Of a stretch of DNA of 64,000 nt, positions 12,287-36,394 are shown piece by piece. The notes under the pieces are model-generated. The model saw nothing but the letters and a program-made list of their open reading frames with translations, was not told where the DNA came from and did no database searches. Position 1 is the first letter of the stretch. Each line of letters opens with the position of its first letter. Position numbers and translations under genes: made by a program. The DNA comes from a virus: positions 12,246-76,245 of IMG/VR virus record IMGVR_UViG_3300013137_000013; one strand, written 5' to 3'.

Positions 12287-13618
12287 ATGCCAAAAGACGA
12301 TATTATAGCGCAACGAGCTCTTCAAAACGCTGGACAAGGAAATTACAGCTCTAATATTTCTAATGGGAGAGGTATATATCCTGCCATTGTTGTTCCTTAT
12401 GGTACCAACGATAACTCAGAACAAAACCGCATAAGAGCAAGAATAGTAACTGTACAAGATGATGGAAAAATACAGGGTAGAATAAATTTAAATAGTGAAG
12501 AAAATTATAATGGTTATTCTGGCAAAGATAGGGGGATAACTGATGATAATCTTGTTTTATGTATGCCTCTTCTGCCAGAGTTTTTCCACATAAGACCGCA
12601 AGTTGGAGAAATGGTTTTTGTTATTCTGGAAAATCCTACCGATAACTCCAGTGTGAGATATTGGATTGGACCTATAATTTCATCAAAATTAAAATTAAAT
12701 TACCAAGGTTTTGAGGATTCTTATAAAATGTTTAACAAAACCACTTTTATATCTAGTCCCAAAACAAGCGGTTCCTTAGACCTTTCAACAACCTTTCCAG
12801 AAGACTCTGATGTTGCAATCCAGGGAAGAAAAGATGCAGATTTGATATTAAAAAACAGAGAGGCTTTACTTATTGCTGGCAAATTTTCAGACTTTCAAAA
12901 TTTTGTTATCAATACCGACTATCCTTCATATTTAAGGTTAAAACAATTTGATAGTACTACAACAGAAGAAAAACCTACAGTAGAGCCTAAGAATATTATT
13001 CACAACATCAATGTAGGGATGGTACATGACCCTATTGGTAACAAATTTGCTGGAACAATAATAGTAAAAGAAATAAAAAGTGATATTGAGCTAAAAAACG
13101 AAACAAACACATATATATCAAGTTCTGATACAATAAGTTGGTTAAGTACAAAAATTACAGAAGTTAAAACAAAATATCCAAATTGGTCATTTACTTCAGA
13201 AATGGAAACATATAAAACCTATAAAAAAGATTATTATGTAGTTTCAGCGCCATCCGTCACAGACCCACCAGTCGCAACGAATAATGAAAATTTATTAAAA
13301 AAATACTCCCAAGCAACTCTTATTTCAACAAATATTAACATATACTCTCCAAGAGGCAAATTTAGAGGTAATGATGTAAAATCTTTCGAAAAGAATGATG
13401 ATTTAAAATCTTTTGGGACTTTTGCAGACACACTTCATCCAGCAATATTTGGAGATGAAACAGTCAGAGTTTTAGATTTAATTATTAGACTACTTCTTAC
13501 CCACATTCACACACCAGAAATGCCTTTATTACAAACTGCAATTTCAAATGAGTTGAAAAAATATACAGTGGATGGATGGTTACAGAATCTTATATCTAAC
13601 CACATCAGGATTAATTAA
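12287..13618 (+). CDS. Baseplate central spike, gp5/VgrG-like OB-fold protein
   Basis: RIRARI...PLLPEFFHIRPQVGEMVFVILEN..RYWIG (OB-fold); C-terminal THIHT (HxH metal-binding apex). Confidence 0.75.
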   Translation: MPKDDIIAQRALQNAGQGNYSSNISNGRGIYPAIVVPYGTNDNSEQNRIRARIVTVQDDGKIQGRINLNSEENYNGYSGKDRGITDDNLVLCMPLLPEFFHIRPQVGEMVFVILENPTDNSSVRYWIGPIISSKLKLNYQGFEDSYKMFNKTTFISSPKTSGSLDLSTTFPEDSDVAIQGRKDADLILKNREALLIAGKFSDFQNFVINTDYPSYLRLKQFDSTTTEEKPTVEPKNIIHNINVGMVHDPIGNKFAGTIIVKEIKSDIELKNETNTYISSSDTISWLSTKITEVKTKYPNWSFTSEMETYKTYKKDYYVVSAPSVTDPPVATNNENLLKKYSQATLISTNINIYSPRGKFRGNDVKSFEKNDDLKSFGTFADTLHPAIFGDETVRVLDLIIRLLLTHIHTPEMPLLQTAISNELKKYTVDGWLQNLISNHIRIN

Positions 13619-15030
13619 AATGGCTTAATTATCTTTAGGTCTATTCTTTCTGGCATTACCCTATTTGTTCCCATTTCATTAATCTTAAAACTAATTTGAT
13701 ATGTTTGATTGTGTAATAACCAAGATGCGTCTACATCAAAATAATTAGTTGTACAATCATCTATGACAGCATGATTAACTTCAGTCCATGGAATAACTTC
13801 AACTTGATTGTTCATTATCATTCGGTACTGTAAAGAATAGGATGTGCTTGGTTTATTTGTGCTATAATTAACTCTCAAGTCACAATATACCCTTATTTTT
13901 TCATCCTGATGAACTATCATGCCCTGTTCAATTCCATAGGTTTCAAGAACATATTCATTTATAGATGGCCTATTGGCTGTATAATAATTTTTTTGTATTT
14001 GGAATGTTTGCGATATATTTTGATTGTCATATTGACTAAAACTTACATTATTCCAAACATCCACATATTTTTCCCCAGGGGTAGCGCCAGACATCCATAC
14101 GTTTACATAATATGCTCCAGTAGATAACTGAGAAGGAATAAGCCCAGAATAAACTGTAGTGTTTCCTCTTTTAATATCTACAGTCACTGCAGACAGATTT
14201 ATGTTTGTAAAATTATGACCACTAAAGGTATATAAGAATAAATTTGATGGTCTATTGTTAGAAATTTGTTTCCTATCATCTTGAATGACTTGATTGTACA
14301 CAACCTCAAGAAATGGCTTAAATGCAGTATTTGTTTTTTCAGTAAAAAATGAACTTATATATCTTGTGTCTGCACTAAACAATTCATAATCTCTTCTATA
14401 AGCAATTGCAATTCCATTGTTTTCAGAACCACCACTTAACCAATCTTTTACAATATCAGTTACATCCATATTTAAATCCTCATCTCCAATATCAAAATGC
14501 TGAGAAGTGTGATAAGTTGTAGATGCGGATGGGTCAATATATATTCCTGGTTCATTCCAGAAAGTCAATGACGTAGCGTAATCCCAATTAGAAACCCCAG
14601 ATGTCAAATAGTTTCCAGATTGTCTAACAATATAAATTTCTTTGATTAAATCATAACCTCTGCCCTCTTCCCAATACTTATTTATTGGGAAAGCAATCAA
14701 ATCGAATGAGGTGGCAACCATTTTTTTTAAAACATCATGTTCATATTCAGACTCAAGAACCAAATCTCTTGGTTTCGAATTTTTTAACTTTAATTTATAA
14801 GATGTAACCAAAGATTCATTAATTTCTTTAGTGCTGAATTTTTGCTGTAAATTAGTTAAATCAAAATAAAGTAGAAATCTGCTAACAGAATTTCTTTTGT
14901 CTGGCGCTGTATCTGTTCCTCCGCCACCATACCACAAGTCTGTTACGGTGTTTTGACCAGAGTTTAGGTTGCTATAATAACTTCCAGCTATAGTGTTGCT
15001 TTTTGATGGATAAATTCTAAAAACTGACAT
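13615..15030 (-). CDS. Virion structural protein (DNRLRE-like beta-sandwich)
   Basis: SRFLLYFDL, WEEGRG, SNW, MDVTDIVKDWL..NNGI, KPFLEV; has its own late motif. Confidence 0.6.
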   Translation of the reverse strand: MSVFRIYPSKSNTIAGSYYSNLNSGQNTVTDLWYGGGGTDTAPDKRNSVSRFLLYFDLTNLQQKFSTKEINESLVTSYKLKLKNSKPRDLVLESEYEHDVLKKMVATSFDLIAFPINKYWEEGRGYDLIKEIYIVRQSGNYLTSGVSNWDYATSLTFWNEPGIYIDPSASTTYHTSQHFDIGDEDLNMDVTDIVKDWLSGGSENNGIAIAYRRDYELFSADTRYISSFFTEKTNTAFKPFLEVVYNQVIQDDRKQISNNRPSNLFLYTFSGHNFTNINLSAVTVDIKRGNTTVYSGLIPSQLSTGAYYVNVWMSGATPGEKYVDVWNNVSFSQYDNQNISQTFQIQKNYYTANRPSINEYVLETYGIEQGMIVHQDEKIRVYCDLRVNYSTNKPSTSYSLQYRMIMNNQVEVIPWTEVNHAVIDDCTTNYFDVDASWLLHNQTYQISFKINEMGTNRVMPERIDLKIIKPF

Positions 15031-15044
15031 TTTCTTTTTTTTAT

Positions 15045-15141: not shown

Positions 15142-15525
15142 ATGAAATCATTAGGAATACAATTTCCATTTACAGAAACTTATAACGGGGGAATTATAGG
15201 ATACACTCAAATAGATGTTGAGGCAATAAAATCCAACCTGACAGCATTTCTTACTCTTAAAAGAGGACAAAGGCCGATGCATAATTCATTGTATTCTCCT
15301 TTATATGATTATATAATGGAACCTTGGGACAATATTAGTGAATCAAGATTAACAGATGATTTAAGCAAAAAGCTGGTAGAATTTTTTCCAGAAATAGAAG
15401 TAAAAAAAATAAATTTTGTTTTTGAAGAAGAAAACAATTATTTACATCTAACACTTTATTATACAGTAGTTGATTTAAAGGTATCAGACAGTGTTTCTGT
15501 AACAATAGCCATTCAACCAAAATAA
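15142..15525 (+). CDS. Baseplate wedge / sheath initiator, gp25/GPW-like
   Basis: GIQFPF, IKSNL..FLT.KRGQRPM, LYDYIMEP; precedes the gp6-like gene. Confidence 0.85.
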   Translation: MKSLGIQFPFTETYNGGIIGYTQIDVEAIKSNLTAFLTLKRGQRPMHNSLYSPLYDYIMEPWDNISESRLTDDLSKKLVEFFPEIEVKKINFVFEEENNYLHLTLYYTVVDLKVSDSVSVTIAIQPK

Positions 15526-17447: not shown

Positions 17448-20400
17448 ATGCAAGATGAAATTTTAATAAAAAGATATAAGAGTGGAACCACAATTCATTA
17501 TTTTAATACGGATATAAATCCTAATAATTATTCCACGTCAACAATACCAGCCATCGTAAAATTAAATTCGACGGACAACGTTCCCTTGGAACTTCATGGA
17601 TATGATGGAGTATTTTTGACTGGTAATTCTCCAACTGTTTTGTGGAAAAGAAATGAACAACAGAATTCATATGATTCTGGAATAAATATGAATTATGTTA
17701 TTGATACATATTTGCCAAATTCGAATTATGTTTCTGGAAGAACATTTTCTTTAACCGTAAATATTCCTATTAATAAATTGAAAACAACTACACTATCAAA
17801 TAGATTCTTTGATAGCATGAATAATCTATTTACAGCTGGCACTACATCATTTGTGTTTTTTGAACCGATTTTAATAGACGATTTGTATGCAAATGTTAAA
17901 TTGGAAAAAACATTTGACGTTTTAAATACTTTAAATATTTATAACAAAGTTTCTGGCGAAATTCCAATTAGAGAATCTACAACTGGAGTAGTTTTTGGAA
18001 GATTAGAAGCCATTCAAAAAATTTCTGATACAAATGGGAATAGAATAAAAATCCCCTTGAGAAACGTTCCAATAGGAGTTTTTAATCCTTCTGTAGAATT
18101 CCAAACTCCAGATGAATTAGATAGTGAAGGGAATAGAATAAGGCTTAATTATAGACCCCTTACAGTATCTGAGGATAATTATTCACAACAATCTCCACTT
18201 GGCTGTTTAGAATATTATTTTAATTCAGAATCCGCACAATTTGATAACATATTTCTTAAACAAACTCCAATGGATGGAATTAATGTCCACCCAACATTTA
18301 GTGGGGTTGTTTATACCAATGAAAACGGAGAATTTTTTTTACACAATGTCGAAATTGGTCCTCAAATTTTATTTTTCGAGGTAGATTTATTAAAACAAGG
18401 ACTCACCAAAGATGAGGTTGCTTTAAACTTTTTCCCATATCCACCAAACTATGACAACATATTAATAGATACTGTTCCTCATTATTTTTACAGAGCAATC
18501 CCAATAGACGTTGTTCCAAGTTATGGAAGGTCTTATCAAACTGGATATACAGAAGTAGATGTTTCTGTTAATTTGGATTTGAGAAAATGGGCAACTTATA
18601 TCATTCCTCCAGTAACGTATCAAAACAATGAAATTGATAGCGCAATCTATAGAAAAATTTCAAAAGCACCTCTTACTGTAAAAGTAAGAGATATGAGTAA
18701 ATTTGATAAAAAGAAAGCGGCATCTACATCTGGGGCAATTAGAATAGAGACTTACCCATCCACAGGAATTCAAATAGTTGAAATACAAAACATTGGCGAC
18801 AAAAACTCCAATCAACAATGGGAGTGGGCTAATGAATTTTCTCAAATTAAAGACAAAGCACTTTTTTATTCATATGGTTATCATGCAGTAAAATTGCCTG
18901 CAAATATTTATGATGATCAATCATATAAAACAAATATTTATGGCATTCCAAAAAACGGGACAACAGAAGAAGCAAAATTCTCAAAAGGAGTTTGGTTATG
19001 TGGTTATCAACTTAAAGTTTACTTAACAAAAGAAGATAAATATTATAGAACCACAGGAATGGAAGTTGGGTGGAATGGCTCTATTTCAGAAAAGTGGTAT
19101 TCAAGAGACCATTATCATTGTAATTTATATGATACAAATAGGCTACCATCTATTTATCAATTTGTTAATAGTGATAATAATTATAATACAGTGATAGGGC
19201 AAGGAATAGGTATTTATCCGTATGAACAAGCTTGGACTAAAAACTACCCAAAACCATACAGTATTCCTAAAAAACCAACAATTTCGAATTTTATTGACCC
19301 TTATTTAGAAAAACCATATATGGAAACTCCAACATGGCAAGATGGGGACATTATTCGTGGAAGTTCATATTTAGGATTTGCTGGTTTTGGACTTGGCTGG
19401 AATGCAGAAATTGTGCAATATACGGATTTCGCAACAGATGTTATAGGAAATTCTAACGATTCAGATATGTACAAATATGAACCAACAGTAAATGCAGATT
19501 GCGGTTGCTACGCCAATGGATATTGTTATGATTTAGATAATGCAAACTCTGGAAATGGAGTTGGTAGCACATCAAGAGTAATTGGAGCAGAAGAATTTCA
19601 AAGAGTAGAGGCTGGTTATGGATATTTTTTATTTCCAAGTTCTATGCCTAGAATAATTCCATATCCTTGGTATTATGATGGTCTTCATATCAAAGAGACT
19701 GATTATAGCAAATATAATCAACAAGATGCAATGTACACATCTCAAATACAATTGTTGTTTCAAGGATATAATCAAGTGCTTTTACATCATTATCATTCAT
19801 TTAGTATACTAAATAATGGGAAAAGTATAGCAATGGATTTAAGTAAAAAAGGAGATGGGGGAGTTATAAATGATAGATTAAATATTTATAGAATTATTAA
19901 TGGAGCAAATAGACTACCATATACTACAAAACAATTAATAATACCGACATATTTTAATATCGGCTTGGGTGGTTTTATGGATGGTTGCTATTCATTTGTA
20001 TTTATTAACGATGGAGAAATAACAGTTGAAATTGAAAACGCTTTTAGTACACCATTAAATGCAAGTCATTTACGATATGGAGCTATAATGAACACAGATA
20101 ACTCAAAAATTATTTTGCCACCTGGGAGTTATTTTATCATAACTAAAGCAAATGGTAATGATATTGAAGCAACTTTAAATTATACAAAAATAAATTATAT
20201 TCCTGCAAATTTTGCTTTTAACGATGAACACAATAGATATACAAAAGCAAAATATCATATAGTTGTATCACTTAATGATAGTACTTTAGACGGTCCATGG
20301 AATAGTAGTTCATCTGAATCATACGAAAATTATCAATCAATAACAAATCACCATTGGGCGGCCCATGGCGGATATGCAGATATAATTTTGAATATAGATG

Positions 20401-20609
20401 CAAATGAAATTCCAGAGGATTGGTTCTTAAATACAGAATCGACTGGAGGTGCTGAATGTGCAACATTAGGGTGTGGGAGTGCAAGTAATGGAAATAGATA
20501 TGGTATCACACAATGGGGTAGTGGTTCAGTCCAACCAAGCTGGTACAGGATTTGGGTTGGAAAAACAAAAATGTGTGATGTTTCTACATTCGGCGGCAAT
20601 CCTTGTTAA
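17448..20609 (+). CDS. Large virion structural protein (baseplate/fibre-associated)
   Basis: 1053 aa; GVVFGRL..PL.NV and TNENGEFF.HNV..G suggest a transthyretin-like fold; in the baseplate operon. Confidence 0.6.
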   Translation: MQDEILIKRYKSGTTIHYFNTDINPNNYSTSTIPAIVKLNSTDNVPLELHGYDGVFLTGNSPTVLWKRNEQQNSYDSGINMNYVIDTYLPNSNYVSGRTFSLTVNIPINKLKTTTLSNRFFDSMNNLFTAGTTSFVFFEPILIDDLYANVKLEKTFDVLNTLNIYNKVSGEIPIRESTTGVVFGRLEAIQKISDTNGNRIKIPLRNVPIGVFNPSVEFQTPDELDSEGNRIRLNYRPLTVSEDNYSQQSPLGCLEYYFNSESAQFDNIFLKQTPMDGINVHPTFSGVVYTNENGEFFLHNVEIGPQILFFEVDLLKQGLTKDEVALNFFPYPPNYDNILIDTVPHYFYRAIPIDVVPSYGRSYQTGYTEVDVSVNLDLRKWATYIIPPVTYQNNEIDSAIYRKISKAPLTVKVRDMSKFDKKKAASTSGAIRIETYPSTGIQIVEIQNIGDKNSNQQWEWANEFSQIKDKALFYSYGYHAVKLPANIYDDQSYKTNIYGIPKNGTTEEAKFSKGVWLCGYQLKVYLTKEDKYYRTTGMEVGWNGSISEKWYSRDHYHCNLYDTNRLPSIYQFVNSDNNYNTVIGQGIGIYPYEQAWTKNYPKPYSIPKKPTISNFIDPYLEKPYMETPTWQDGDIIRGSSYLGFAGFGLGWNAEIVQYTDFATDVIGNSNDSDMYKYEPTVNADCGCYANGYCYDLDNANSGNGVGSTSRVIGAEEFQRVEAGYGYFLFPSSMPRIIPYPWYYDGLHIKETDYSKYNQQDAMYTSQIQLLFQGYNQVLLHHYHSFSILNNGKSIAMDLSKKGDGGVINDRLNIYRIINGANRLPYTTKQLIIPTYFNIGLGGFMDGCYSFVFINDGEITVEIENAFSTPLNASHLRYGAIMNTDNSKIILPPGSYFIITKANGNDIEATLNYTKINYIPANFAFNDEHNRYTKAKYHIVVSLNDSTLDGPWNSSSSESYENYQSITNHHWAAHGGYADIILNIDANEIPEDWFLNTESTGGAECATLGCGSASNGNRYGITQWGSGSVQPSWYRIWVGKTKMCDVSTFGGNPC

Positions 20610-20621
20610 AATTAAACAAAA

Positions 20622-22028
20622 ATGGATGAAAGAAGAAGAATATTATTAGGAAATAAAGATATATTATCCAGAAAGATTAAAGATTTTTATCTTGATATAA
20701 ATCTTTCTAGGGATAATAAAGAGATTATACCATACAAATATGATAATGTTTTTGATTTAACAAGGTTTTATGACCAAGAAAGAAATCAAAGCAGAAATTT
20801 TATCATATATGGCATTATAGATTCTTGTTCTTGGGATTGTGATAATCTATTAATTCAAGTATACCAATCCCCAGATTTAGATACTCCAAATTATTTATGT
20901 AGTACAGTAACAAAAAATGTTGTTAATCAAGCTATGCCATTTAAGAATATTTTTAATAAACTGAGAGGAAGATATATTATTGATAATATTCCAACAACCT
21001 TTACTGGATGTTCCGTTTATTTAAAGGTAAATGTTCCTGGATATACATATATTACTGAACAACAATTAATTTTTACAACATTAACATTAAGCAGTACTGG
21101 TGAAAAAGTTATTGAACAACTCAAATATGGAATAGATGAGGCTATTACTGATTGTGACGGAAATGTAATTCCAATAACTAATGATTTTGATTTTTTTTAT
21201 AATAAACATTGGATTAAAAAAGATATATTTGCCACCGACTATAGAACTATTTGGGTTGGAAATCCAGAGGATTTTTTATGTATACAAGACCAATACGGAT
21301 ATAATACAGGAATGGCACATTATAATTCAGTAATTGAATTATATGCTATTAACCATTATCCAACTGGAAACATGCAAAATAACGCCCCCCCTTATGATGT
21401 GGCAGATTTTGAGAATCTTGGAGCTTGCCCATTACCAATTCCAACAGAACAACTTACAATTATACAAAGCCCATCAAATGGAGGAACATTTATTATAAAT
21501 CCAGAAAAATTAAATTTATTATATTTGCCAATTGATAATGTTCACATATCTGCAACAGCCAATAGTTGTTTCAATTTTTCTGCTTTCACATATTCAGATG
21601 GCACTATAATTCCACACAATGTCACAGATAATGGAATTGATGTTTTAATGAATAGCGCCCAAACCATTTCTGTTATTTACAATTACAAAAAATATACATT
21701 AAGAGTTAGATTTACTTATACTGTAGAGACTAGTCCTTACGACAGCTATGACTTAAACGAATTTCCACTTGACATAAATACTAGTCAATCACCAGTAAGA
21801 ATAAATGGAATACTAACTGCAAATAATGTTGATTTAATATTTAATTGTGGAGATGTAGTATATATTTCACATTTTCTCAATACAATTTTTTCACAATCAT
21901 TAGGTAGATTTTGGCTTGGCGATGTAGTATTTGAAGGAAATAGCCACTCGCCAAATGATTTTGATTTTATAATTAATTCTGATTCTACTTTAGAAATTGT
22001 ATATGTTGCTTATTATCATCATCAATAG
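20622..22028 (+). CDS. Virion structural protein with C-terminal Ig/InlB-repeat-like segments
   Basis: FYDQERNQS..F.IYG N-terminus; SPSNGGT...V.ISATANSCFNF. Confidence 0.55.
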   Translation: MDERRRILLGNKDILSRKIKDFYLDINLSRDNKEIIPYKYDNVFDLTRFYDQERNQSRNFIIYGIIDSCSWDCDNLLIQVYQSPDLDTPNYLCSTVTKNVVNQAMPFKNIFNKLRGRYIIDNIPTTFTGCSVYLKVNVPGYTYITEQQLIFTTLTLSSTGEKVIEQLKYGIDEAITDCDGNVIPITNDFDFFYNKHWIKKDIFATDYRTIWVGNPEDFLCIQDQYGYNTGMAHYNSVIELYAINHYPTGNMQNNAPPYDVADFENLGACPLPIPTEQLTIIQSPSNGGTFIINPEKLNLLYLPIDNVHISATANSCFNFSAFTYSDGTIIPHNVTDNGIDVLMNSAQTISVIYNYKKYTLRVRFTYTVETSPYDSYDLNEFPLDINTSQSPVRINGILTANNVDLIFNCGDVVYISHFLNTIFSQSLGRFWLGDVVFEGNSHSPNDFDFIINSDSTLEIVYVAYYHHQ

Positions 22029-22052
22029 TATTCTAATTTTAAAAAATAAATT

Positions 22053-25983: not shown

Positions 25984-27594
25984 TTAATTATAATTGTATC
26001 CTATATTCCAATAGAATGTTGTTGTAGATGCTCGATAAACAAATGAGATAATGTCTTCGGCATTTATGCCTGATGATAAAAGTACAGAACCACCACCGCC
26101 ATTTACAATCTTATGAGTACCTGGAGTTCCACTAAATGATAATGTTCTGCTACCAGAACCATCTTGCTGTACAATTAATGTTCCAGAATCACCATCAGAA
26201 ACGCCAGTTATTGATAAACTTCTATTTCCACCTAATTGGGCAAATGCATTTGCGCCCAAATCATATCCCCACGTAATTGTGGCATCATCAATAAGTGTTT
26301 GGAATGCACTCGTTCCAGAAACAACATTTCCATTAATATCTATGCCCAATCCAGCAACCAATGTCCCAGTATCTAACTTATTAACATTTAACCTATACAC
26401 ATATGTTGTGTATGCTTGCGTTCCAGTTAATGAAAATCCACCAATAATTGCACTATAATTTGCAGTAGAATCTAAATAATTATTCGAACCTCCCAAAATT
26501 ACGCCACAACTTGCATCATTAGCATTTAGTGAGCCGTGTGTCAAAGAGTAACTTCCTTTTGCTGTTGTATGATTTCCAAAAGTATTTGAATTCTTGCCCA
26601 ATGCCGTTGTATAGGCACCCTCTGCATGAGATGCTTCTCCTGAAGCTATTGTGTAATATCCTTCTGCATGAGAATATTGCCCATATGCCGTTGTATAACA
26701 TCCTTCTGCATGACTATATCCTGGCTGAATGAGTTGTGAATATCCACCTGCAGTTGTGTAATATCCCTCTGCATGAGATGCTTCTCCTGAAGTCATTGTA
26801 TAGTACCCTTCTGCATGAGATGCTTCTCCTGATGCTATTGTGTGATTCCCTTCTGCATGAGAATATTGTCCATATGATACAGTATTTTTTCCTTCTGTAT
26901 GAGATGTTGCTCCATTTGCTGTTGTTTGACCCCCTTCTGAATGTGAATTATTTCCAACCGTAGTTGTTAAACCCCCTTCAGCATGAGATACTGCTCCAGA
27001 TGCTATATTATATCCGCCTTCCGCATGAGATGCTAATCCAAAAGATATATTATATCCACCTTCAGCGTGAGAAGCATCCCCAATGGCAGTAGTTCCAGAA
27101 CCTTCTGAATGACTTGCACTTCCTGAAGTTATTGTCTCAACTCCCTCTGCATGAGATGAATAACCATTAGCTAATGTTAATTGCCCTTGTGCAAATGAAT
27201 AATCCCCACCTGCTACTGTATTATAACCAGCAGCAAAAGAAGTATTGCCACTAGCAAGGGTTGAATTATTGCAAGCAAACGATGAATAACCCGTGCCACT
27301 GGTGTTAAATCCTGATGCGGTTGCATAATTTCCAGTTGCATCTGTTCCACTATCATTATTTTCTTTAACAGAATAATTACCACTTGAACCAGAAATCCAT
27401 ATATCAGAACCTTGTGCTTGAAAAACGTTATATAAATCTGTGTTGCCAGAATAAAGGGTTCCTCCACTAAGAGAAGTTGAATAAGCTTCATTAAAGGTAG
27501 CGGCATTGAAAGATGATGTTGCACTAAATGCATTATTTAGCGCAACCCTTCCTTGGTCAAGCGTATATGAACTTAATAATAATTCGCCAATCAT
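25984..27594 (-). CDS. Tail fibre / adhesin with YadA-head-like 14-aa SHAEG repeats
   Basis: 13 SH[AST]EG repeats at 14-residue period, then a C-terminal IVQQDGSGSRTL domain typical of phage fibres. Confidence 0.8.
   Translation of the reverse strand: MIGELLLSSYTLDQGRVALNNAFSATSSFNAATFNEAYSTSLSGGTLYSGNTDLYNVFQAQGSDIWISGSSGNYSVKENNDSGTDATGNYATASGFNTSGTGYSSFACNNSTLASGNTSFAAGYNTVAGGDYSFAQGQLTLANGYSSHAEGVETITSGSASHSEGSGTTAIGDASHAEGGYNISFGLASHAEGGYNIASGAVSHAEGGLTTTVGNNSHSEGGQTTANGATSHTEGKNTVSYGQYSHAEGNHTIASGEASHAEGYYTMTSGEASHAEGYYTTAGGYSQLIQPGYSHAEGCYTTAYGQYSHAEGYYTIASGEASHAEGAYTTALGKNSNTFGNHTTAKGSYSLTHGSLNANDASCGVILGGSNNYLDSTANYSAIIGGFSLTGTQAYTTYVYRLNVNKLDTGTLVAGLGIDINGNVVSGTSAFQTLIDDATITWGYDLGANAFAQLGGNRSLSITGVSDGDSGTLIVQQDGSGSRTLSFSGTPGTHKIVNGGGGSVLLSSGINAEDIISFVYRASTTTFYWNIGYNYN
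26590..27170 (-). repeat. 42-bp-period coding tandem repeat (SHAEG array); boundaries approximate
   Basis: Recurrent ccttctgcatgaga / ccctctgcatgaga on the + strand. Confidence 0.8.
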
Positions 27595-27625: not shown

Positions 27626-29329
27626 TTAATCTATACCAAAAATTTTATCACCCATAACTCCCCATGTATCCCACATATTGCCCCAAAGCAATTTGAGATG
27701 AATAACTCCAACCGAGGTGTCACCAGTAATACTAATAGTTCTACTGTCTTGTTTATATCCTCTATAGAAAGTATTTAAAGTATATGTTCCAGGTTCTAGC
27801 TCTGTAAATACAAAATTTCCAGTAAGGTCAGTCGGTTGAGTTATATAACTACTATTTGGATAAATTAATTGAATAGTAGCACCAGTCACAACACTTCCAG
27901 AAACAACTCCACTAAGAGAATATTGACCCTGGAGAGAATCATCTAAATATGATGGATATGCCCACATAGGAGAATCTGCAATGTGTGGGCTATCTGATTG
28001 GGTATAAACATAAGATTTATATACACTTGGGGTCGTTATTGCAGTTCCAACATCAGAAAAAGTTACAACACTTTGCTTCACTCCAAATATGTTTATTAAT
28101 TCTTTGACCCCACCCATTCTGTACCAAAATTGTGTTTTATTTAATAAAGGAACAGAATATTCTCTTACAATGTCAGTTGTTTTTTGTGTTATAGACCAAT
28201 CTTCAGATTCAGAGCCCAACAATTCATTTGTACTTAATTTTGTATCTTCTTTTTTAATTGGATAAGAATATACCACACCACTAAAAGATTGTGAATCTCC
28301 AGAATCATAAACAACTTGTAATAAATAACTATCTGCATCATTAGAATTTGACCAAAAGAAGTTGGGGGAAAAAGTAGTTAGTTGTCCAGTCACATAAGGT
28401 TTAACCCATTGTGGTTTATTTGGAATCAAAAAATATGTGAAATAATTTCCATAAACAGTAATTCCCGAAAATGTTCCACCAGTTATTATGTGTGCTGGTA
28501 CTGGAGTAGTTTCCTTATAATATTGTTGATAACTTATAGGCACAATGCTATCATCATCTCCAAGTTGACAAAATTCATATAATCCCGCTCCCTGCATTCT
28601 TTCAAACTCGAATTGTGTTGTAATAAAGTATTGCGCATAATCCTCAAATAATTGAAAAGCGAAATCTCCTTTTCTTTTTTGATATTCTGCTAAAAATAAA
28701 TCATAAACACTTGTTGAAATCCCAGATGTTGTTGCAGTAATCGTTAGAATTGGATTTTCTAACATTGTTTGCATTGCTTTATATTTATCAGATTGACTAA
28801 TTGAGGATGTTAATTCCGATGGAAATGAACTTGGAGCCAATAATTCAGAAACGTTGTTTAAAGATATTTTTCTTTTTGTAACACTTGTGCTTGATATTCC
28901 ATCTTTTGTTATTGTTTCCTCAATGGTTTCCTCAGATGCATTTCTTGTTTCCTGAACTTTTGTCCTTTCTAAATTAGCAACACATTCTTTATAATTTTTA
29001 TAAGGAATTTTATAAAGTTGATGTTTAATTGTTACACCAGTTCCAAAGTGGTCTGTGTTTGCAGTAAATATAAACCTAATAAATGGCCTAGAGACATTGG
29101 TAAAAATAGACCAATAATCCTGCATATAATAATTCAATGTTCCACCTAAAGTGTAATAAGTGGGCGTATCGAATTCAAAATAATCGCTATTTACAATATT
29201 TACATCAACAAAATGATTAGTGTAAAATCCTTCAGCAAAACTTTCTGGGTAACAAGCTGGCATACCAGAATGCTTTTGGTAATCTTGCTTTATGAAAATC
29301 TTTTTATTTGAATCGTATATTAATGACAT
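27626..29329 (-). CDS. Virion protein with Fn3-like and carboxypeptidase-regulatory-like domains
   Basis: PNFFWS...ADSYLLQV...FWYR; LSGVV..VTGATIQL..TDLTGNFVFTELEPGTYTL. Confidence 0.6.
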   Translation of the reverse strand: MSLIYDSNKKIFIKQDYQKHSGMPACYPESFAEGFYTNHFVDVNIVNSDYFEFDTPTYYTLGGTLNYYMQDYWSIFTNVSRPFIRFIFTANTDHFGTGVTIKHQLYKIPYKNYKECVANLERTKVQETRNASEETIEETITKDGISSTSVTKRKISLNNVSELLAPSSFPSELTSSISQSDKYKAMQTMLENPILTITATTSGISTSVYDLFLAEYQKRKGDFAFQLFEDYAQYFITTQFEFERMQGAGLYEFCQLGDDDSIVPISYQQYYKETTPVPAHIITGGTFSGITVYGNYFTYFLIPNKPQWVKPYVTGQLTTFSPNFFWSNSNDADSYLLQVVYDSGDSQSFSGVVYSYPIKKEDTKLSTNELLGSESEDWSITQKTTDIVREYSVPLLNKTQFWYRMGGVKELINIFGVKQSVVTFSDVGTAITTPSVYKSYVYTQSDSPHIADSPMWAYPSYLDDSLQGQYSLSGVVSGSVVTGATIQLIYPNSSYITQPTDLTGNFVFTELEPGTYTLNTFYRGYKQDSRTISITGDTSVGVIHLKLLWGNMWDTWGVMGDKIFGID

Positions 29330-29354: not shown

Positions 29355-31730
29355 TTATTCGGCCACTAATTGTTGTGATGAACTAATTATAGATGCTGTG
29401 GCGATTACGGCACCAATTTCTGAATTAACAGTTTTAGTATTAACACTACATGTAATGTTTAAAGCCTTTATGGATGCCTCCTTTGTCTCAATTTTTTGGC
29501 AGGAAAACTTAAAAGGAAAAACATTTTGCTGAGTTGGAATAATAATTTTTACATCAGAAAGCGAACAATACTTAAATTGTCCTATCACTGGTTCTAAAGA
29601 ATCTCTTCTAAACATAGAACCTTTGTCAACTCCTTCTCTGTAAACAAATCTTTCTCTATGAAAAACTGGATTTTTATATGTAGTTGGAACGTGTTCATTA
29701 AAAATTGTGGTAGCTGGAACTAATTGTAGCATATAATCTCCGAGTTGTACTTCAAGTAACTGTATGTATGATTCCAATTTACACATTGTTAGTGAATTGC
29801 TATCAGGACAAGTTGCATAATAATAAGATAAATATATATTTTTTAGTTCTGGATAGCCCCAAACAGTATGACATTGTGCGTTTGTTTTTCTATTTGTTGG
29901 ATTAATTGAATTCGTATAAACATAATCTATATACTGACTTAAAGTCATAGCAGCTATATTTATTGGTTGCACGTCTTCTTGTGTAAAAGTTAAAAATTCA
30001 AACGGAATAGTCATACAACTAAAAGAAGGGCATGGACTGCCCCACATCCATGATGCACATGGTTGCTGAAAATATTGCCAAACATCACATTCAATAGCTT
30101 GTGTTGGAGCAAATTCAAGTCCCACTTCTTTTGTGTTAACAATACTTCTTGTACCATCAATTGGGTCTCCAACCTCTATTTTAATATTATCAACCCTCAT
30201 AAGTGGGTCAAATTCTGGCCTCCATTGATTAATATAATCATATCCATTTCCCCTGTTAATTCCCCCTTGTTGGAATATATATAAACTTTCAGAATAATTA
30301 ATATATCCGTCAGTATCAACTTTTGATGTTACATTTGGGGCTGTTTTAACAATATCATAAACAAATTCATTGAAATTTATTAAACAATCTGGAGCTCCAA
30401 GAAGTTTAAATATAAACGTAATAGCGTCTCTGGTGCCCTTTTTCTTATACAACCACACTATATTAATTAAAATTCTTCTCCAAATTTCAACATTAAAATA
30501 AGAAAATGAATTATTGCTTTGGTCCAAATCGCTTGTTAAATAATCAAACAAATCCAATTCGCTAAATCCATCTGATAATTTCCACCCCAAAAGAGTCCCT
30601 AACTTCATCATAAATTTTCTTGGAACAGTTTCTTCGTTATTATATTCAACACTATGAGCATATGCTATTGCGTCTATATAATTTTTAAGTTTATCAAATT
30701 CATAAGCATATGTTTGAATAATACTTCTATAAATTTGTCCATTGGAATCCAACTCCAAATAGTTTTCTGGAATTACAGTTTTTATAAAAATATCAGTTTT
30801 CTCCTCATCAACCCTTTCTGCTGCAACTAAAATTTTATCTTTATATGTTTCAAAATTAGAACCATATGAATCAGGAGCAAAACCATCAATCGTTCTTGGC
30901 CATATAAATTGTTTATTAATATAATCATCTTCTGTTGTTTCTGTATTTGGAATCGCAAAAATTCCTTCTCCCAACAATTGTGTTTCTAATGAAGTTATCG
31001 AATCATTGTAATTATACATTCTTTCAATGGTTGGCCTGATGTATAATGCTTTTGTAAAAACAGGACTTGAATTGCCACCCATTAAAAGCCCAGAGACTTC
31101 AAAATACAAATATGTTCCAGAGAAAGAATAGTTTTTTATTTTATGAATTTCCGTTTGTCCACTTAATTGTACACAAAACTGTTTATAGTCATAAGATAAA
31201 CTGTAATTATTAGGAGTATTTGCAGACGTTAAAATAATATTACTTTGGTTAGTTAAACCAGATGTTGGTATTTTAAAAACCGACCACGTTTCAAACGTTA
31301 TATTGTCATAGTGCTCAGAATAGTCAAATATATTTACGTTACCATTATTATAAGATAGAATTGCATATGGATAGTCGGATATTATTCTATTTATTGCTGA
31401 CGCTACGCTGGTATAAAACGAAGAAAAATAAGAATGACTTTTAGGTTTTCTTTTTGGTAAATTTAATTCGTTTTGTTGAACGAATGTGCTAGAAACAGAA
31501 CTAATTAAATTTACAGCATTTAAGGTCTCTAAATTATCAAATGTGCCAAAACTAGCAAATTGTGTAGAGGAAGTTAAAACATCTAGGGAATAATTTTTTT
31601 CAATTGTAAAATCCCCAAAAGAAAATATGGCATCAGACTTTGAGGCTACTAATCTTTTTTCCTTTCCTGGTTGTGGACGTATAGATAATGTTGTAGCAGA
31701 ATTTATATTTGTCTCAAAAGGTATTGGCAT
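29355..31730 (-). CDS. Baseplate wedge protein (P2 gpI / T4 gp7-like)
   Basis: FDKLKNYID..P.K....LGW...IWRRILINIVWLYKKKGTRDAI.FIFKLLG. Confidence 0.7.
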   Translation of the reverse strand: MPIPFETNINSATTLSIRPQPGKEKRLVASKSDAIFSFGDFTIEKNYSLDVLTSSTQFASFGTFDNLETLNAVNLISSVSSTFVQQNELNLPKRKPKSHSYFSSFYTSVASAINRIISDYPYAILSYNNGNVNIFDYSEHYDNITFETWSVFKIPTSGLTNQSNIILTSANTPNNYSLSYDYKQFCVQLSGQTEIHKIKNYSFSGTYLYFEVSGLLMGGNSSPVFTKALYIRPTIERMYNYNDSITSLETQLLGEGIFAIPNTETTEDDYINKQFIWPRTIDGFAPDSYGSNFETYKDKILVAAERVDEEKTDIFIKTVIPENYLELDSNGQIYRSIIQTYAYEFDKLKNYIDAIAYAHSVEYNNEETVPRKFMMKLGTLLGWKLSDGFSELDLFDYLTSDLDQSNNSFSYFNVEIWRRILINIVWLYKKKGTRDAITFIFKLLGAPDCLINFNEFVYDIVKTAPNVTSKVDTDGYINYSESLYIFQQGGINRGNGYDYINQWRPEFDPLMRVDNIKIEVGDPIDGTRSIVNTKEVGLEFAPTQAIECDVWQYFQQPCASWMWGSPCPSFSCMTIPFEFLTFTQEDVQPINIAAMTLSQYIDYVYTNSINPTNRKTNAQCHTVWGYPELKNIYLSYYYATCPDSNSLTMCKLESYIQLLEVQLGDYMLQLVPATTIFNEHVPTTYKNPVFHRERFVYREGVDKGSMFRRDSLEPVIGQFKYCSLSDVKIIIPTQQNVFPFKFSCQKIETKEASIKALNITCSVNTKTVNSEIGAVIATASIISSSQQLVAE

Positions 31731-31869: not shown

Positions 31870-33969
31870 ATGAGTTATATAGTTCAAGAACCCTCAAATT
31901 TTATAAACATCAAGCTTACTGATACAGGAAGAAGATTATTATCGTTGGGAGCATTAACTTTTAATAGTATAATCTTTTCCGACAGAGAAGTTAATTATTA
32001 CTTAGGAAGAAATAATATATATGATATTTGTCGCAATAGAGTTTTAGCTCCAAAAGATGACCAACCAGCCATTTCTGGGATTCCGTTTAATCAAATACCT
32101 AGTATTTCAACTCCCACGGCAGTTGAAAAACTAAGCCTTGCCTTAAGTTCAAGTTTCAACGGAGCCAATAGTGTTCCCATAACTTCACAAAACTTAACAA
32201 GTGCAAAACAAATTGTTTCTGCCATGACGAGTTCGGTTGGTTTTTTCACTGGTAGTTCTTATAATTGGCAAATAAAAACTGGAGCAACAGTTGGCGATGC
32301 TTATAGCATTGGCATGGCCGAAATAGATTATTCAACGACTATTCCAAATGGAACAACAGAAATTGATGTTACAGCTGGAGGATATACTGCAAAAACGGGG
32401 GATTTGGTTTATATTCCATGGGAACCACCTCAATATAGTGCTATAACTAATAATACAACTTATGTGTTTAGTGCAAGACCAGAAGTTGCATTATGGTATA
32501 GAGTTCAGGGGGTAAATGGAACCACTCTTTCTCTTGATAGAAGTGTACCAAATTTTGGGAATACCCCAATCGTGGGCTCTACTCAAAAAATTAAAGCATA
32601 TTTTTATCCTTATGGAAAAGTAGAAAACTTTTATGGTTCTGCGGTGACAGTGGATTGTGGAGTTTGGAATATGAATATAGTAAGAACATCTTCTGAAATT
32701 GGAACACTCCCATTAATGAGTGGGTATACAACATATGGTTCTATTGAATATAATGGAACAAAACAATATTTAGGTTTTGGATATGATATCAAAGCTTTTG
32801 GTATAATTCATTATACAAACAAATTTTCTGGAAATACCTATGCAGAACAATTAGTACCAAAAACGGTTAAATTAGAAATTCCAAATATAATGTGGCACAG
32901 AAGTTATTCTGTATCAGTTGGCCAAGAATTGATTCATGGCTTGACATTATATGATTATTATGGAACTGACATATTCGATACAATTGCTCAAACAACTTAC
33001 AGAGAGCTGAGAGATGGAACATCAAGCACATCTTTTGTAGTTGGAAGAGTTTATCATAAACTTAAAATAATTGTTATAACCGACCAAGAATTGTTGACGG
33101 CTTTAACATATAAATCAAATAGAAATTATACATTACCAGAATTAACACTTTCTACAGAGCCATCTATACTTGGCTCATCATCTGGATTTTGTAAGAGTGA
33201 TTATGTTTATTATGTAACATATTTAACGTCAAGCAATGCTTATCAAGACGGTGTAAGTTATGGATACTCACAAAGTTTACCATGTGGTTATATAAAACAA
33301 ATTAATGGAGATACAGATACAGTTACTGGTCTACATTCTGTTTTAAAAGCCAACTTCTCAACACTCTCATTTCCTTACATGAGAAATAGCACTAATTTAA
33401 CATCTTTATCTGGAACTGGATGGAATGCCAATTCAGTACAATTAATATTCCAAGAATATCCAGTATCGGCCTCTACAAACGTGGGAACTTTACCTACAGA
33501 TTTGTGGAAAATATTCACTGGAGGCAATGGGGTATATACTGGAGAAACAGGTAGTACAACTATAAATCCAGCAGATTTGCAGAGTCACGTTTTTGCTCTC
33601 AATCTGTCAGATTACTATTCATCAACCACCTATTCATTAACAGGCTTATATTCCGCATTTACTACAAATACAGATTCATATACTTCAAGTGGATTAACAT
33701 TTGGTGACGAGGCATTCTTTTATGGTAATTTAACAACAGGAATTCAGGCAAATGTTTACAAAACAATTATTACTATATATGCAAAAAATGACGAATATAA
33801 TTCATCTTTGAATTCTACTTTCGACAGTTTGTATAATGATAGTACGTTTATAACCGAAATAGGAATTTTGAATACCAAAAATGAACTTGTGGCAGTGGCC
33901 AAGCCAGCTTATCCAATAAAAAAGGATTCTTCAAGATACCTTGCATTTCAGTTGGAATTAGATTTTTAA
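31870..33969 (+). CDS. Tail-collar / fibre-attachment protein (P2 gpH N-domain-like) with a large insertion
   Basis: N-terminal KLTDTGRRLL; C-terminal FITEIGILN..NELVAVAK..PIKKD....F.LELDF. Confidence 0.65.
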   Translation: MSYIVQEPSNFINIKLTDTGRRLLSLGALTFNSIIFSDREVNYYLGRNNIYDICRNRVLAPKDDQPAISGIPFNQIPSISTPTAVEKLSLALSSSFNGANSVPITSQNLTSAKQIVSAMTSSVGFFTGSSYNWQIKTGATVGDAYSIGMAEIDYSTTIPNGTTEIDVTAGGYTAKTGDLVYIPWEPPQYSAITNNTTYVFSARPEVALWYRVQGVNGTTLSLDRSVPNFGNTPIVGSTQKIKAYFYPYGKVENFYGSAVTVDCGVWNMNIVRTSSEIGTLPLMSGYTTYGSIEYNGTKQYLGFGYDIKAFGIIHYTNKFSGNTYAEQLVPKTVKLEIPNIMWHRSYSVSVGQELIHGLTLYDYYGTDIFDTIAQTTYRELRDGTSSTSFVVGRVYHKLKIIVITDQELLTALTYKSNRNYTLPELTLSTEPSILGSSSGFCKSDYVYYVTYLTSSNAYQDGVSYGYSQSLPCGYIKQINGDTDTVTGLHSVLKANFSTLSFPYMRNSTNLTSLSGTGWNANSVQLIFQEYPVSASTNVGTLPTDLWKIFTGGNGVYTGETGSTTINPADLQSHVFALNLSDYYSSTTYSLTGLYSAFTTNTDSYTSSGLTFGDEAFFYGNLTTGIQANVYKTIITIYAKNDEYNSSLNSTFDSLYNDSTFITEIGILNTKNELVAVAKPAYPIKKDSSRYLAFQLELDF

Positions 33970-33984: not shown

Positions 33985-33992
33985 TATTTATA
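33985..33992 (+). promoter_or_regulatory. Putative late promoter TATTTATA
   Basis: Upstream of 34005. Confidence 0.7.
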
Positions 33993-34004
33993 AAAAAAAA
34001 AATT

Positions 34005-34439
34005 ATGGGAAACGTTTTATCATCAAGTACGATTTATGCAGTAGCATATTTAACAGATTTGGGAAGAAAGTATTTGTTTGACCCAATAACAAATCATAGA
34101 TTTGTAAGAGATGCTGCTGGAAATACAATTGATGCTTTTAAAATTGTATATTTTTCTATGTCTGACCCAGACTACAATTATAATTTAACTCAAGGAATAG
34201 CACTTGAAAGTGGCGACATTGCTAATGTTTCTGGGAAAAATGACGATTTTATCCAAGGTTCCATTGTTAGCGAAGAAAACAATTTGATTTCTGTAAACGG
34301 AGAAGTTGGGGGCATGAATGGTATGACAACTCCAACAGAAAATATATCAATAGATGTTCCTTATATTTTAGAAAGCAATATGACTGACAACGTTCTCACA
34401 GTTAATACAAGTACGTTTCAAGTTGCTACAGGTATATAA
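34005..34439 (+). CDS. Virion protein similar to the N-terminus of the 31870 collar protein
   Basis: AYLTDLGRKYL...FSMSDPDYNYNL versus KLTDTGRRLL...IFSDREVNYYL. Confidence 0.6.
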   Translation: MGNVLSSSTIYAVAYLTDLGRKYLFDPITNHRFVRDAAGNTIDAFKIVYFSMSDPDYNYNLTQGIALESGDIANVSGKNDDFIQGSIVSEENNLISVNGEVGGMNGMTTPTENISIDVPYILESNMTDNVLTVNTSTFQVATGI

Positions 34440-34453
34440 TTAATTAAAAGAAT

Positions 34454-35197
34454 ATGGCAGCAATAACAACAACAACGACAATATCCACGAATACAGCATC
34501 TAAGGTTGCATCTAACCTTGGTATTTCTTATTCTGATGCTATTCAAAATTTGAATAACAATAGGAGCCCAATTATATCAATGAATGAAAACCCTCACCCA
34601 AGTAATTATGTTACCAATGGAGTGGCAAGGGTAATACAATTATTGACATACTATGGTGGTAATATAAATAATAACAGCATAGCTGTAGAAAAGTATTCAA
34701 TCAGCCCAAATTTTACTGGATTGATTAAATGCTCTGGGCCGCAAAAGGGGATTTGGTATCTTCCTTTTCCAAATACTGTTTACGCAATTAAATTTTATGG
34801 ACCAGATGAATATGATGCAAAGTATTATAATCACGTTTATGCTGTTCCTGCAAAAATAGACAGTTCTTATTGGACTGGGCTTAAAGATTATACAACCGCA
34901 GTGCCTCAAGAATGGATAACAGCATTTGTGCAATACGCAAGTACGATACCATCAAATATTACACCTGCAACCCCCACTCTTACTCCAATATTAAATGCAG
35001 TTAAAAGTTTTCCAACAACTGATGCTACTCAAAAATATCAATTTTCTTTTAATTTTTGGGGAAGTTTAAGTGGAACAATCGGCAAAGCTTCAAGTTTTGC
35101 TTTTGAATATGTATTTTACCCAGGAACAGCACCAAAACCTCCAGTGGTAGGAACAGTAATTAATGCTGATTTGAATACTTTTTTATCAGCAACGTAA
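34454..35197 (+). CDS. Hypothetical virion protein
   Basis: Ser/Thr-rich ORF in a late operon. Confidence 0.65.
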   Translation: MAAITTTTTISTNTASKVASNLGISYSDAIQNLNNNRSPIISMNENPHPSNYVTNGVARVIQLLTYYGGNINNNSIAVEKYSISPNFTGLIKCSGPQKGIWYLPFPNTVYAIKFYGPDEYDAKYYNHVYAVPAKIDSSYWTGLKDYTTAVPQEWITAFVQYASTIPSNITPATPTLTPILNAVKSFPTTDATQKYQFSFNFWGSLSGTIGKASSFAFEYVFYPGTAPKPPVVGTVINADLNTFLSAT

Positions 35198-35221
35198 GCA
35201 ATAAAATAAAAAAATAAATCT

Positions 35222-36394
35222 ATGGCAGAAATTAATAAAAGATTAGTCAATTCATCAACTTCTATTAGAAAGGAAGTATCAACTTGGGTAAGTTTGTCTG
35301 ATTCCAAGTTGTTATATACTCTTGCAGATAGAACTGATGTCAATAACAAATATGGACATTATTTTTCCACATTTAATATTCCCTACAAACGCTCTAATTC
35401 TATTTTTTATAGCGGGGAAACAATGGCAAGAACCAATCCAGAATTGTTTCAATTAAATGTTGATAAAATTGTAGTAATTCCTATTAGTGAGAACTATTAT
35501 AGTGAATATATTGATGGAAGGTCAATTACTTTAAAAGTTCCACAAACAGGCGGCACATACAAAACGGTGGTTTCTAGTTTCTATTCTGATACTTTAAGAA
35601 ATGCCAAAACTGGAGATTCGCCAATTCAATATTTTGGACCTTATAATACTGCTTTTTTATTTTCAGATGATATAAATAAACCTTTTACTGGAACAACCGA
35701 AAACGGTTCTATAAACCACAATCAAATTACAACCTGGGACCCAACTACTGATTTTAGAAATAGACCATCTGCTGTTGCATATAATCCCGAAATAAAAAGA
35801 AGTGATTATAACAAAGACCAGAGACCTTGGTCATCAGTAGATTTGGCAGTATATGTAAATCAAGCATATCCTAAATCTTTAAATACATACGATGATGTTG
35901 TTAACGGCTATAATTATGATATTCCAGTTGGTTTTGTTAGCTTAGATAAGGGGTACATAATTTTAACACACCCAAGTATTGTTGATAATATTCCATGGAC
36001 AACTGGAAGCAAAACATATCAGCCAGGATATGGAGAAGCAAATGCGGGAGAAAATATTATAACGGGAGATAATTTAGCTGGAAGCACAGAGAAAATTGTG
36101 TTTACTGGTTTAACATCTACTTTAACTTTTGAAGATATAAGCATAAGATATTTAACTTCTGTTGTTTGTATTGCAATGCCAGGGGAGTTTTTTATATCAA
36201 AAAACCCATCATGGCCATTATCAAGAAATTTGGCTGAGATTAGCAATCAAACAACCAATTTTGATTCCATTTTTATTACTCAAATTGGCTTGTACAATAT
36301 TCACGAACAACTAATTGCGGTTGCAAAACTAGATAGACCAGTTGAAAAAACATATGATGGACTAATAAATTTCAATTTACAAATTGACATTTAA
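35222..36394 (+). CDS. Virion protein similar to the C-terminus of the 31870 collar protein
   Basis: FITQIGLYNIHEQLIAVAKLDRPVEK....FNLQIDI. Confidence 0.65.
   Translation: MAEINKRLVNSSTSIRKEVSTWVSLSDSKLLYTLADRTDVNNKYGHYFSTFNIPYKRSNSIFYSGETMARTNPELFQLNVDKIVVIPISENYYSEYIDGRSITLKVPQTGGTYKTVVSSFYSDTLRNAKTGDSPIQYFGPYNTAFLFSDDINKPFTGTTENGSINHNQITTWDPTTDFRNRPSAVAYNPEIKRSDYNKDQRPWSSVDLAVYVNQAYPKSLNTYDDVVNGYNYDIPVGFVSLDKGYIILTHPSIVDNIPWTTGSKTYQPGYGEANAGENIITGDNLAGSTEKIVFTGLTSTLTFEDISIRYLTSVVCIAMPGEFFISKNPSWPLSRNLAEISNQTTNFDSIFITQIGLYNIHEQLIAVAKLDRPVEKTYDGLINFNLQIDI

Follow-up and report, generated by a model that had tools for sequence, protein, structure and literature searches.

A strict [ST]-[GA]-x-T motif in unrelated outer tail proteins of large uncultured phages, a candidate sequon for cytoplasmic O-glycosylation

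The N-x-[ST] sequon of oligosaccharyltransferases and cytoplasmic N-glycosyltransferases consists of an acceptor, a free position that excludes Pro and a downstream hydroxyl residue, with Thr favored over Ser. Other arrangements are known: the general O-glycosylation sequon of Bacteroidota, D-[ST]-[AILVMT], acts on exported proteins, enzymes of the TibC/AAH type heptosylate the beta-helix repeats of autotransporters in the cytoplasm, and the chlorovirus PBCV-1 glycosylates its major capsid protein at non-canonical sites with virus-encoded enzymes. For the virion glycosylation of mycobacteriophages we know of no strict sequon. Phage glycosyltransferases of the Che8-type mycobacteriophages modify structural proteins in the cytoplasm, with a shielding of the exposed surfaces of the virion as the role proposed for it (Freeman et al. 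2023, as summarized in PMC12619734). We analyzed a stretch of 64,000 nucleotides (the window), which spans bases 12246-76245 of one virus contig, 76,245 bases long (IMG/VR record IMGVR_UViG_3300013137_000013; 31% G+C; ~24% of a genome by CheckV), and in which a short motif, [ST][GA]x[ST], recurs in unrelated tail proteins. The evidence, drawn from sequence, favors a motif that would be read by a shared factor. That it is such a tag, with an acceptor site for glycosylation as the leading candidate, is a reading that we hold tentatively. Our literature search found no paper on such a motif and no published explanation for it.

The motif resembles each of these systems in part. With its residues numbered from the first Ser/Thr (position 0), it has in common with the N-x-[ST] sequon an acceptor, a Pro-excluding free position and a hydroxyl residue two or three positions downstream, preferably Thr; here, however, the candidate acceptor is Ser or Thr instead of Asn, +1 is taken by an extra small residue and the motif is spaced i to i+3; no oligosaccharyltransferase-like or NGT-like enzyme turned up, though no search was aimed at one. 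The TibC/AAH systems offer a precedent in that they O-glycosylate, in the cytoplasm, a multitude of Ser/Thr residues in the short turns of adhesin-like, beta-rich proteins, yet their enzymes are of another family and act on the repeats of a single substrate family, whereas many unrelated proteins are concerned here. PBCV-1 is similar in having a soluble, virus-encoded glycan assembly line that includes methyltransferases, acts on structural proteins and uses a virus-specific short motif. It differs in being a eukaryotic virus with N-linked glycans on the capsid protein, and its enzymes are not known to be related to those of the contig. The contig of the window encodes glycosyltransferases, as the mycobacteriophages do; in the summary cited above the mycobacteriophage glycans are on the C-termini of the subunits of both capsid and tail tube, whereas the candidate sites here lie in internal loops of fibers, outer baseplate proteins and outer sheath, the motif is strict, and the capsid protein has no excess of it. 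Bacteroidota are the predicted host phylum of related large phages (PMC12619734). The sequon D-[ST]-[AILVMT] is not enriched (21 versus 25.8 expected in the window, 1056 versus 1165 in its relatives), and inspection of the carrier N-termini by eye revealed no Sec-type signal-peptide features. These two results rule out the host sequon combined with export; the motif is a different one and, if it marks a modification, that modification would be cytoplasmic.

Positions 13615-36394 of the window make up a myovirus baseplate and fiber module, with a gp25-like protein (15142), a gp6-like protein (15534) and a YadA-head-like fiber (25984); several of its large open reading frames (ORFs) fall in no known family on comparison with Pfam and PHROG. 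Across the 15 ORFs that start between 13615 and 35222, [ST][GA]x[ST] was observed 66 times, against 30.4 expected from within-protein shuffles (standard deviation 5.3). None of 5000 such shuffles reached 66 (maximum 51), nor did any of 2000 shuffles made inside 30-residue blocks, which keep the local composition (32.0 expected). The enrichment claimed by the original prediction persists when composition is preserved and is stronger than stated there, and every pentapeptide that it quoted was found in the ORF named for it. Among 18 arrangements of the same residue classes this one alone is enriched (z 6.7), the other 17 (two [ST] and one [GA] within 3-5 residues) all having an absolute z below 2.5. 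The pairwise residue terms are merely 1.07-1.14x in the window, which argues for a genuine multi-position motif. Its last position had been given as Ser or Thr, of which only Thr was borne out ([ST][GA]xT 51 versus 15.0 expected; [ST][GA]xS 15 versus 15.7), and requiring a hydrophobic residue at -1 leaves 31 occurrences versus 5.0 expected. The sharper motif is hydrophobic-[ST]-[GA]-x(not P)-T, Thr being required at the last position; this hydrophobic/Thr refinement was made post hoc on the window and then replicated on two other sets of loci. The remaining 48 ORFs of the window are at expectation (18 versus 15.8-16.3), so that the scarcity of the motif in replication proteins, pointed out earlier, is true but simply reflects their composition.

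The ORFs of the module are given below with their observed versus expected [ST][GA]x[ST] counts and, for families, the excess measured in 80 related loci. G005 is a relative of 372 kb, rated complete and syntenic with the window, whose proteins are 65-88% identical.

13615..15030, minus strand: late protein of 471 residues, family unassigned, carrier; 6 versus 1.2; no Pfam or PHROG match; 79% identical orthologue in G005
15142-15525, plus strand: gp25-like core baseplate wedge protein; PHROG 43, weak PF04965; 0 sites
15534-17435, plus strand: gp6-like core baseplate wedge protein; PHROG 219/10646/6; 0 sites
17448..20609, plus strand: baseplate or fiber protein of 1053 residues, weak carrier; 5 versus 2.6 (not enriched); G005 orthologue 7 versus 1.4
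Within 20622..22628, plus strand (ORF 20622): late protein of 468 residues, carrier; 4 versus 0.7; family 3.3x
Within 20622..22628, plus strand (ORF 22053): late protein of 191 residues, weak carrier; 2 versus 0.2; family 4.9x
22631..25033, plus strand: fiber-like protein of 800 residues, carrier; 7 versus 2.7; family 4.5x
25076..25951, plus strand: conserved late protein of 291 residues, motif-free; 0 sites; 0 versus 13 expected over 35 homologues
25984..27594, minus strand: YadA-head-like fiber of 536 residues, S/T/G/A-rich; PF05658, PHROG 25468; 9 versus 8.7 (not enriched); family 3.3x
27626..29329, minus strand: strong carrier of 567 residues with a C-terminal CarboxypepD_reg-like beta-sandwich (PF13620); 10 versus 2.2; family 6.3x
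29355..31730, minus strand: late protein of 791 residues, carrier at the family level; 4 versus 2.1 (not enriched); family 6.4x, 80 homologues
31870..33969, plus strand: highly conserved virion protein of 699 residues, strongest carrier, not the sheath; 14 versus 4.4
Within 34005..35197, plus strand (ORF 34005): late protein of 144 residues, motif-free; 0 sites; family 2.1x
34454-35197, plus strand: late protein of 247 residues, motif-free; 0 sites; 0 versus 7.6 expected over 11 homologues
35222..36394, plus strand: late protein of 390 residues, carrier; 5 versus 1.3; family 4.9x

The ORFs at 13615, 22631, 27626, 31870 and 35222, cited at the outset as dense in the motif, are clearly enriched individually, as is the one at 20622; those at 17448, 25984 and 29355, likewise cited, are not. 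The 25076 and 34454 families are motif-free, but their homologues are close kin and avoidance is therefore not established.

By gp6, the nearest named phages are Microcystis phage Mel-JY01 (29%) and Flavobacterium phage immuto (28%); the actual relatives are uncultured jumbo phages of ~290-380 kb. We examined two sets of 80 related IMG/VR loci each, the second just 28-37% identical to its fetching query. The motif occurs 3605 times in the first set versus 793 expected (~4.5x), and the control for direction gave 3525 versus 724 for the forward motif (4.87x) and 878 for the reversed one (1.21x). The second set repeated this result, with 3241 occurrences versus 809 (~4x) and 1074 of the reversed motif. 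Each of the 80 loci of the first set shows an excess (2.5-6.5x), as do eight structural families (3.3-6.4x); the primase, SbcCD and other non-virion proteins of the relatives stay near 1x. Residue scans on both sets delineate a strict short motif with a free position that excludes Pro. At position 0 the excess is 5.7x for Ser, 4.0x for Thr and at most 1.2x for the rest in the first set (over both sets, 3.3-5.7x for Ser/Thr and at most 1.3x for the rest), with Asp and Asn at just 0.8-1.1x in both. At +1 it is 5.1x for Gly, 4.5x for Ala and at most 1.2x for the rest (3.2-5.1x for Gly/Ala over both sets), the rare Trp reaching 2.1x in the second set only. At +3 it is 4.9x for Thr (4.0-4.9x over both), 1.3x for Ser and 0.8-1.0x for Val/Ile; an excess of Cys at this position (2.6x in the first set) was not replicated in the second (1.2x). 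Position x admits anything but Pro, Cys and Trp in the first set, Pro and Trp being disfavored in both. The flanks, scanned in the first set, favor Phe, Met, Tyr, Trp, Leu and Ile at -1 and Tyr, Ile and Val at +4, where Pro and Lys are disfavored. Among the outgroups, neither the baseplate, sheath and fiber proteins of T4 (19 versus 16) nor Mel-JY01 (11 versus 8.9) show an excess, and immuto is weakly raised (34 versus 22, ~1.5x), which rules out a general property of phage fibers.

An excess of this kind might be a statistical or compositional artifact, due to S/T/G/A-rich patches, internal repeats, shared ancestry or a signal in the DNA. The carriers are S/T-rich, internal repeats of ~70 residues multiply the counts in some fibers, and homologues in related loci are non-independent samples. 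Yet the block shuffles agree with the whole-protein ones and rule out local composition, neither the reversed motif nor the 17 permuted ones are enriched, and no control of equal composition attains the same excess. As to ancestry, the carriers had been called non-homologous, and blastp and hhalign indeed find no relation among the four carrier families (hhalign probability at most 1%) apart from one motif-free C-terminal domain common to the 31870 and 35222 proteins; shared domains are thereby excluded as the cause of the recurrence. The relatives' ORFs that have no homologue in the window still show 3.7x, and the second set reproduces the excess at its low identity. Ser at position 0 is encoded by both TCN and AGY codons, which places the selection at the protein level, and codon usage rules out a DNA-level signal. 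An artifact is, in our judgment, highly improbable. A separate observation concerns the codon at position 0 of the window sites, which strongly favors a third-base T before a codon that starts with G: TCA accounts for 0 of 29 Ser codons versus 27% in the background, and the ratio of ACT to ACA is 17:4 versus 34:48. This is a codon-context effect.

The distribution of the motif over the virion was followed in G005, where 10 of 380 ORFs are individually significant: two fibers (26 and 20 sites), the PHROG_23 sheath, the baseplate/fiber module matching that of the window, and two proteins without assigned function. The true tail sheath of G005 (156272-158701, PHROG_23) has 9 sites versus 2.4 expected, eight of which lie between residues 101 and 500 and outside the domains that Pfam assigns to the sheath. 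The fibers contain LSAGTF-ISGxTN-YTGGT-type repeats and have 20-26 sites apiece; one of them, a 429-residue protein at G005 153154-154443 (L092:13154-14443, minus strand), has repeats of ~70 residues with three motifs per repeat and 20 sites in all. The gp6-like and gp25-like proteins of G005 are not enriched, and the gp6-like orthologues of both G005 and G027, a 380-kb IMG/VR record (L239-L257), have 0 sites. G027 repeats the carrier pattern of G005, and every carrier is an S/T-rich beta protein. In neither genome does the Gp23-like major capsid protein show an enrichment (2 versus 1.1 in G005, 3 versus 1.3 in G027). With fibers, outer sheath and outer baseplate rich and capsid and core baseplate not, the motif marks the outward-facing parts of the tail and not the whole virion, and the glycan coat over the virion that the original prediction envisaged is not supported.

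In G027 the baseplate module is present twice, in diverged versions: gp6-like genes, 25076-like genes, SbcCD sets and 31870-family members come in pairs. Rather than one genome, the record may combine two related phages in a chimeric assembly. In the window, the genes downstream of the tail module are those of replication: a RuvC-like resolvase, a primase and a fused SbcD-SbcC (38425-41895, plus strand), in which an SbcD-like nuclease and an SbcC-like ATPase form one ORF of 1156 residues. The fusion is found in G005 as well, whereas G027 has separate ORFs.

The 31870 family, with more than 450 full-length homologues at ~50% identity, allowed us to follow single sites. Among 118 homologues of the 31870 protein, [ST][GA]xT occurs on average 13.4 times per protein versus 2.2 expected; 6 sites persist in 80% or more of the homologues and another 13 in 20-80%, while three permuted control motifs yield 0 conserved columns. 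Ser and Thr swap freely at position 0, Thr at +3 is nearly invariant and x varies. In an AlphaFold2 model of the protein (mean confidence score, pLDDT, of 71), 10 of the 14 sites are predicted to lie in coil, mostly just past a strand or helix. Of the 10 conserved sites, 5 fall in loops modeled with pLDDT <50, a class that makes up 17% of the residues of the model. The family has no match in Pfam, PHROG or the sequences of the Protein Data Bank (PDB), and fold searches with the model returned nothing clear (best Z 7.9). By the model, the first ~100 residues resemble the N-terminal anchor domains of tailspikes (AP22 gp54, LKA1 gp49), and residues 145-248 would form a small beta-barrel as in tail tube and Dit proteins. 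The ORF had to be considered as the tail sheath and was rejected, for it lacks the Phage_sheath_1/PHROG_23 domains and G005 has its separate true sheath. The C-terminal domain that relates the 31870 ORF (residues 627-699; window 33748-33966) to the 35222 ORF (residues 307-390; window 36140-36391) spans ~73 residues, aligns with an hhalign probability of 96.7% and may be a common attachment module.

Natural losses of the motif proved to be informative. G020 (IMG/VR record IMGVR_UViG_3300027833_000012; 187 kb, 53% complete) shows no excess genome-wide (50 versus 46.8), and its sheath and its members of the 35222, 31870 and 29355 families are all near 1x. Eight sister loci at 61-65% identity are rich in the same proteins. 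Of the sister sites, 9 of 80 and 8 of 50 survive in G020 (11-16%), compared with a retention of 50% and 68% among rich sisters of similar divergence. The loss from four families at once, in proteins still 62-66% identical to those of motif-rich sisters, indicates that the folds do not need the motif, and its concerted nature in unrelated proteins of one lineage implies a shared reader or writer acting in trans. The 31870 family itself has full-length members with 0-1 sites, retrieved by a profile search of 1.8 billion representatives (P0305, P0364, P0382, P0387, P0284, P0285, P0302, P0343, P0347 and P0373); they are scattered over the tree beside sisters with 7-15 sites. In one motif-poor subgroup a comparison of consensus sequences shows the key residues replaced and the conserved flanks kept. 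G020 shows the motif to be a trait of the genome rather than of a protein family. The motif load of the 31870-family member did not correlate with that of its neighbors across the 80 loci (Spearman 0.004), because nearly all 80 are motif-rich.

These losses bear on the possibility that the motif is an intrinsic structural element, a favored strand-to-loop corner of beta-rich outer tail domains that serves stability or assembly and has neither reader nor modification. Four-residue corners of this kind exist, as the D-x-[GA]-x-Y corner of Ig domains illustrates. The hydrophobic flanks at -1 and +4, the small residue at +1 and the exclusion of Pro are typical of tight corners, many sites keep their position over ~50% sequence divergence, and the carriers are all beta proteins. 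Such a corner fits poorly with the orthologues that do without the motif in four families, with the motif-free members of the 31870 family next to rich sisters and with the subgroup in which only the flanks remain; the concerted loss in particular is hard to explain by constraints of the fold. Nor are Asp/Asn accepted at position 0 or Ser/Val/Ile at +3, unlike a hydrogen-bond cap or a beta-branched preference, which would tolerate such swaps. The fibers and sheath of T4 and Mel-JY01, finally, manage without the motif, and immuto reaches just ~1.5x. We consider a purely structural element somewhat doubtful.

If the motif is instead read by a shared factor, the glycosyltransferases of the phage are the leading candidates, and the genome does encode them together with methyltransferases, as had been stated. 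A cluster just upstream of the window on the same contig (contig 5725-13092) comprises a GT2+GT6 fusion (5725-7716, L001), a GT10, two GT2 and an FkbM-type methyltransferase, with further matches to Methyltransf_23/11 and a weak GT4-like one. Its last gene lies in the window:

203..847, plus strand: methyltransferase-like protein; weak Methyltransf_31/24/12 matches, below the Pfam cut-offs

G005 keeps the GT2 part of the fusion as a separate gene of 266 residues (80% identical) and has no GT6 domain, which shows that the content of the cluster changes quickly among near relatives. An unannotated protein of 266 residues at contig 4923-5723 has an invariant DDD and a confidently predicted GT-A fold. 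Within the window's subgroup, 13 of 19 records conserve both this protein and the adjacent GT2, among them every one of the six with a completeness of at least 49%; neither was found in immuto or Mel-JY01. A conserved pair amid an otherwise variable cluster would agree with a first step that stays constant and later ones that vary. Adjoining the cluster is a radical-SAM protein with a lysine-2,3-aminomutase C-terminal domain (window 1425-2567, minus strand), for which blastp found no match among the G005 ORFs at E values up to 1e-5.

At the level of families, all 19 of the 19 motif-rich records with a completeness of 48% or more have PF00535 (GT2-family) matches. No single orthologue is present throughout, and the presence of GT2 matches in all of these records and in immuto alike makes them too common to discriminate. 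G020 has no GT2 match, but its contig stops ~6 kb short of where synteny with G027 would place the GT2 genes and is unusable as a clean case of neither glycosyltransferase nor motif.

Several observations weigh against glycosylation as the function of the motif. Both conserved glycosyltransferases are absent from four complete motif-rich genomes, in a search whose positive control worked, which rules out the contig 4923-5723 GT-A protein or its GT2 neighbor as a universal writer for the wide group. We found no glycosyltransferase orthologue common to all motif-rich genomes, whereas an identical motif over so wide a group would predict a conserved writer enzyme. Immuto has two GT2 genes and yet shows just its weak excess. 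The glycosyltransferases could serve the glycosylation of DNA or of the host surface instead, and relatives have a ThyA-family gene. The major capsid protein is unenriched, and non-carrier phage proteins stand at 0.9-1.15x, that is, they do not avoid the motif. The hydrophobic -1 and +4 positions and the deep positional conservation would also suit a structural element.

The reader in trans might instead be something other than a glycosyltransferase, the motif being a site of phosphorylation, acylation or cross-linking, or a docking site for a decoration protein, a fiber chaperone or a strand of a neighboring subunit. The strict residue rules, the unrelated carriers and the concerted loss in G020 would serve any factor acting in trans, no universal glycosyltransferase orthologue emerged, and the conserved sites of the 31870 protein in low-pLDDT loops are as one would expect of segments ordered by a partner. 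On the other hand, no candidate writer or partner was identified, 20-36 sites per fiber protein are many for docking, and the need for a hydroxyl at position 0, with Ser and Thr interchangeable, is most typical of an acceptor residue. We regard a reader of this other kind as rather unlikely.

Under the glycosylation reading, the motif would act as a short linear tag that sits in loops of those tail parts that face outward (fibers, outer sheath domains and outer baseplate proteins), maintained by selection through the shared factor that reads it. Most likely it would accept a modification that is added inside the infected cell, either before the tail is assembled or while it is being assembled. 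The leading candidate is O-glycosylation by glycosyltransferases of the phage, with the position 0 Ser/Thr as the acceptor and Gly/Ala at +1 and Thr at +3 as the residues recognized. Lineages such as that of G020 would have dropped the glycosylation system and then purged the sequon. The analysis shows the motif itself, how specific and how conserved it is, where it occurs and that one lineage lost it in concert; we infer the reader in trans, the glycosyltransferase as that reader and the residue that would be modified. The sequon-directed glycosylation first suggested for this DNA thus gains from a motif whose logic is that of a sequon, from its convergent occurrence and from its concerted loss in G020, while the link to the glycosyltransferases is circumstantial and no common orthologue was found. 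In its full form the proposal, which we think possible and advance with reserve, is that a very large group of uncultured jumbo phages, whose hosts are probably Bacteroidota, modifies its contractile tails on their exposed parts, in the cytoplasm and at a strict O-linked sequon, hydrophobic-[ST]-[GA]-x-T, by means of phage glycosyltransferases, the elaborating enzymes varying from one genome to another.

A motif enriched four- to five-fold over hundreds of metagenomic phage genomes and lost in concert once is a clear evolutionary signal. Should it not be a sequon, it is the mark of an unrecognized reader or of a novel structural code within tail proteins. If it is one, viruses of bacteria would here have their first described system of protein glycosylation directed by a sequon; modified sites on the virions of uncultured phages would be predictable from sequence alone, and the motif would offer a portable tag for the glyco-engineering of phage tails. 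The moraphages, which we name for comparison and with no claim of membership, are a lineage of large aquatic phages for which Bacteroidota hosts are predicted and whose core genes include four glycosyltransferase families (PMC12619734); a sequon of this kind would account for the presence of glycosyltransferases as core genes of large aquatic Bacteroidota phages.

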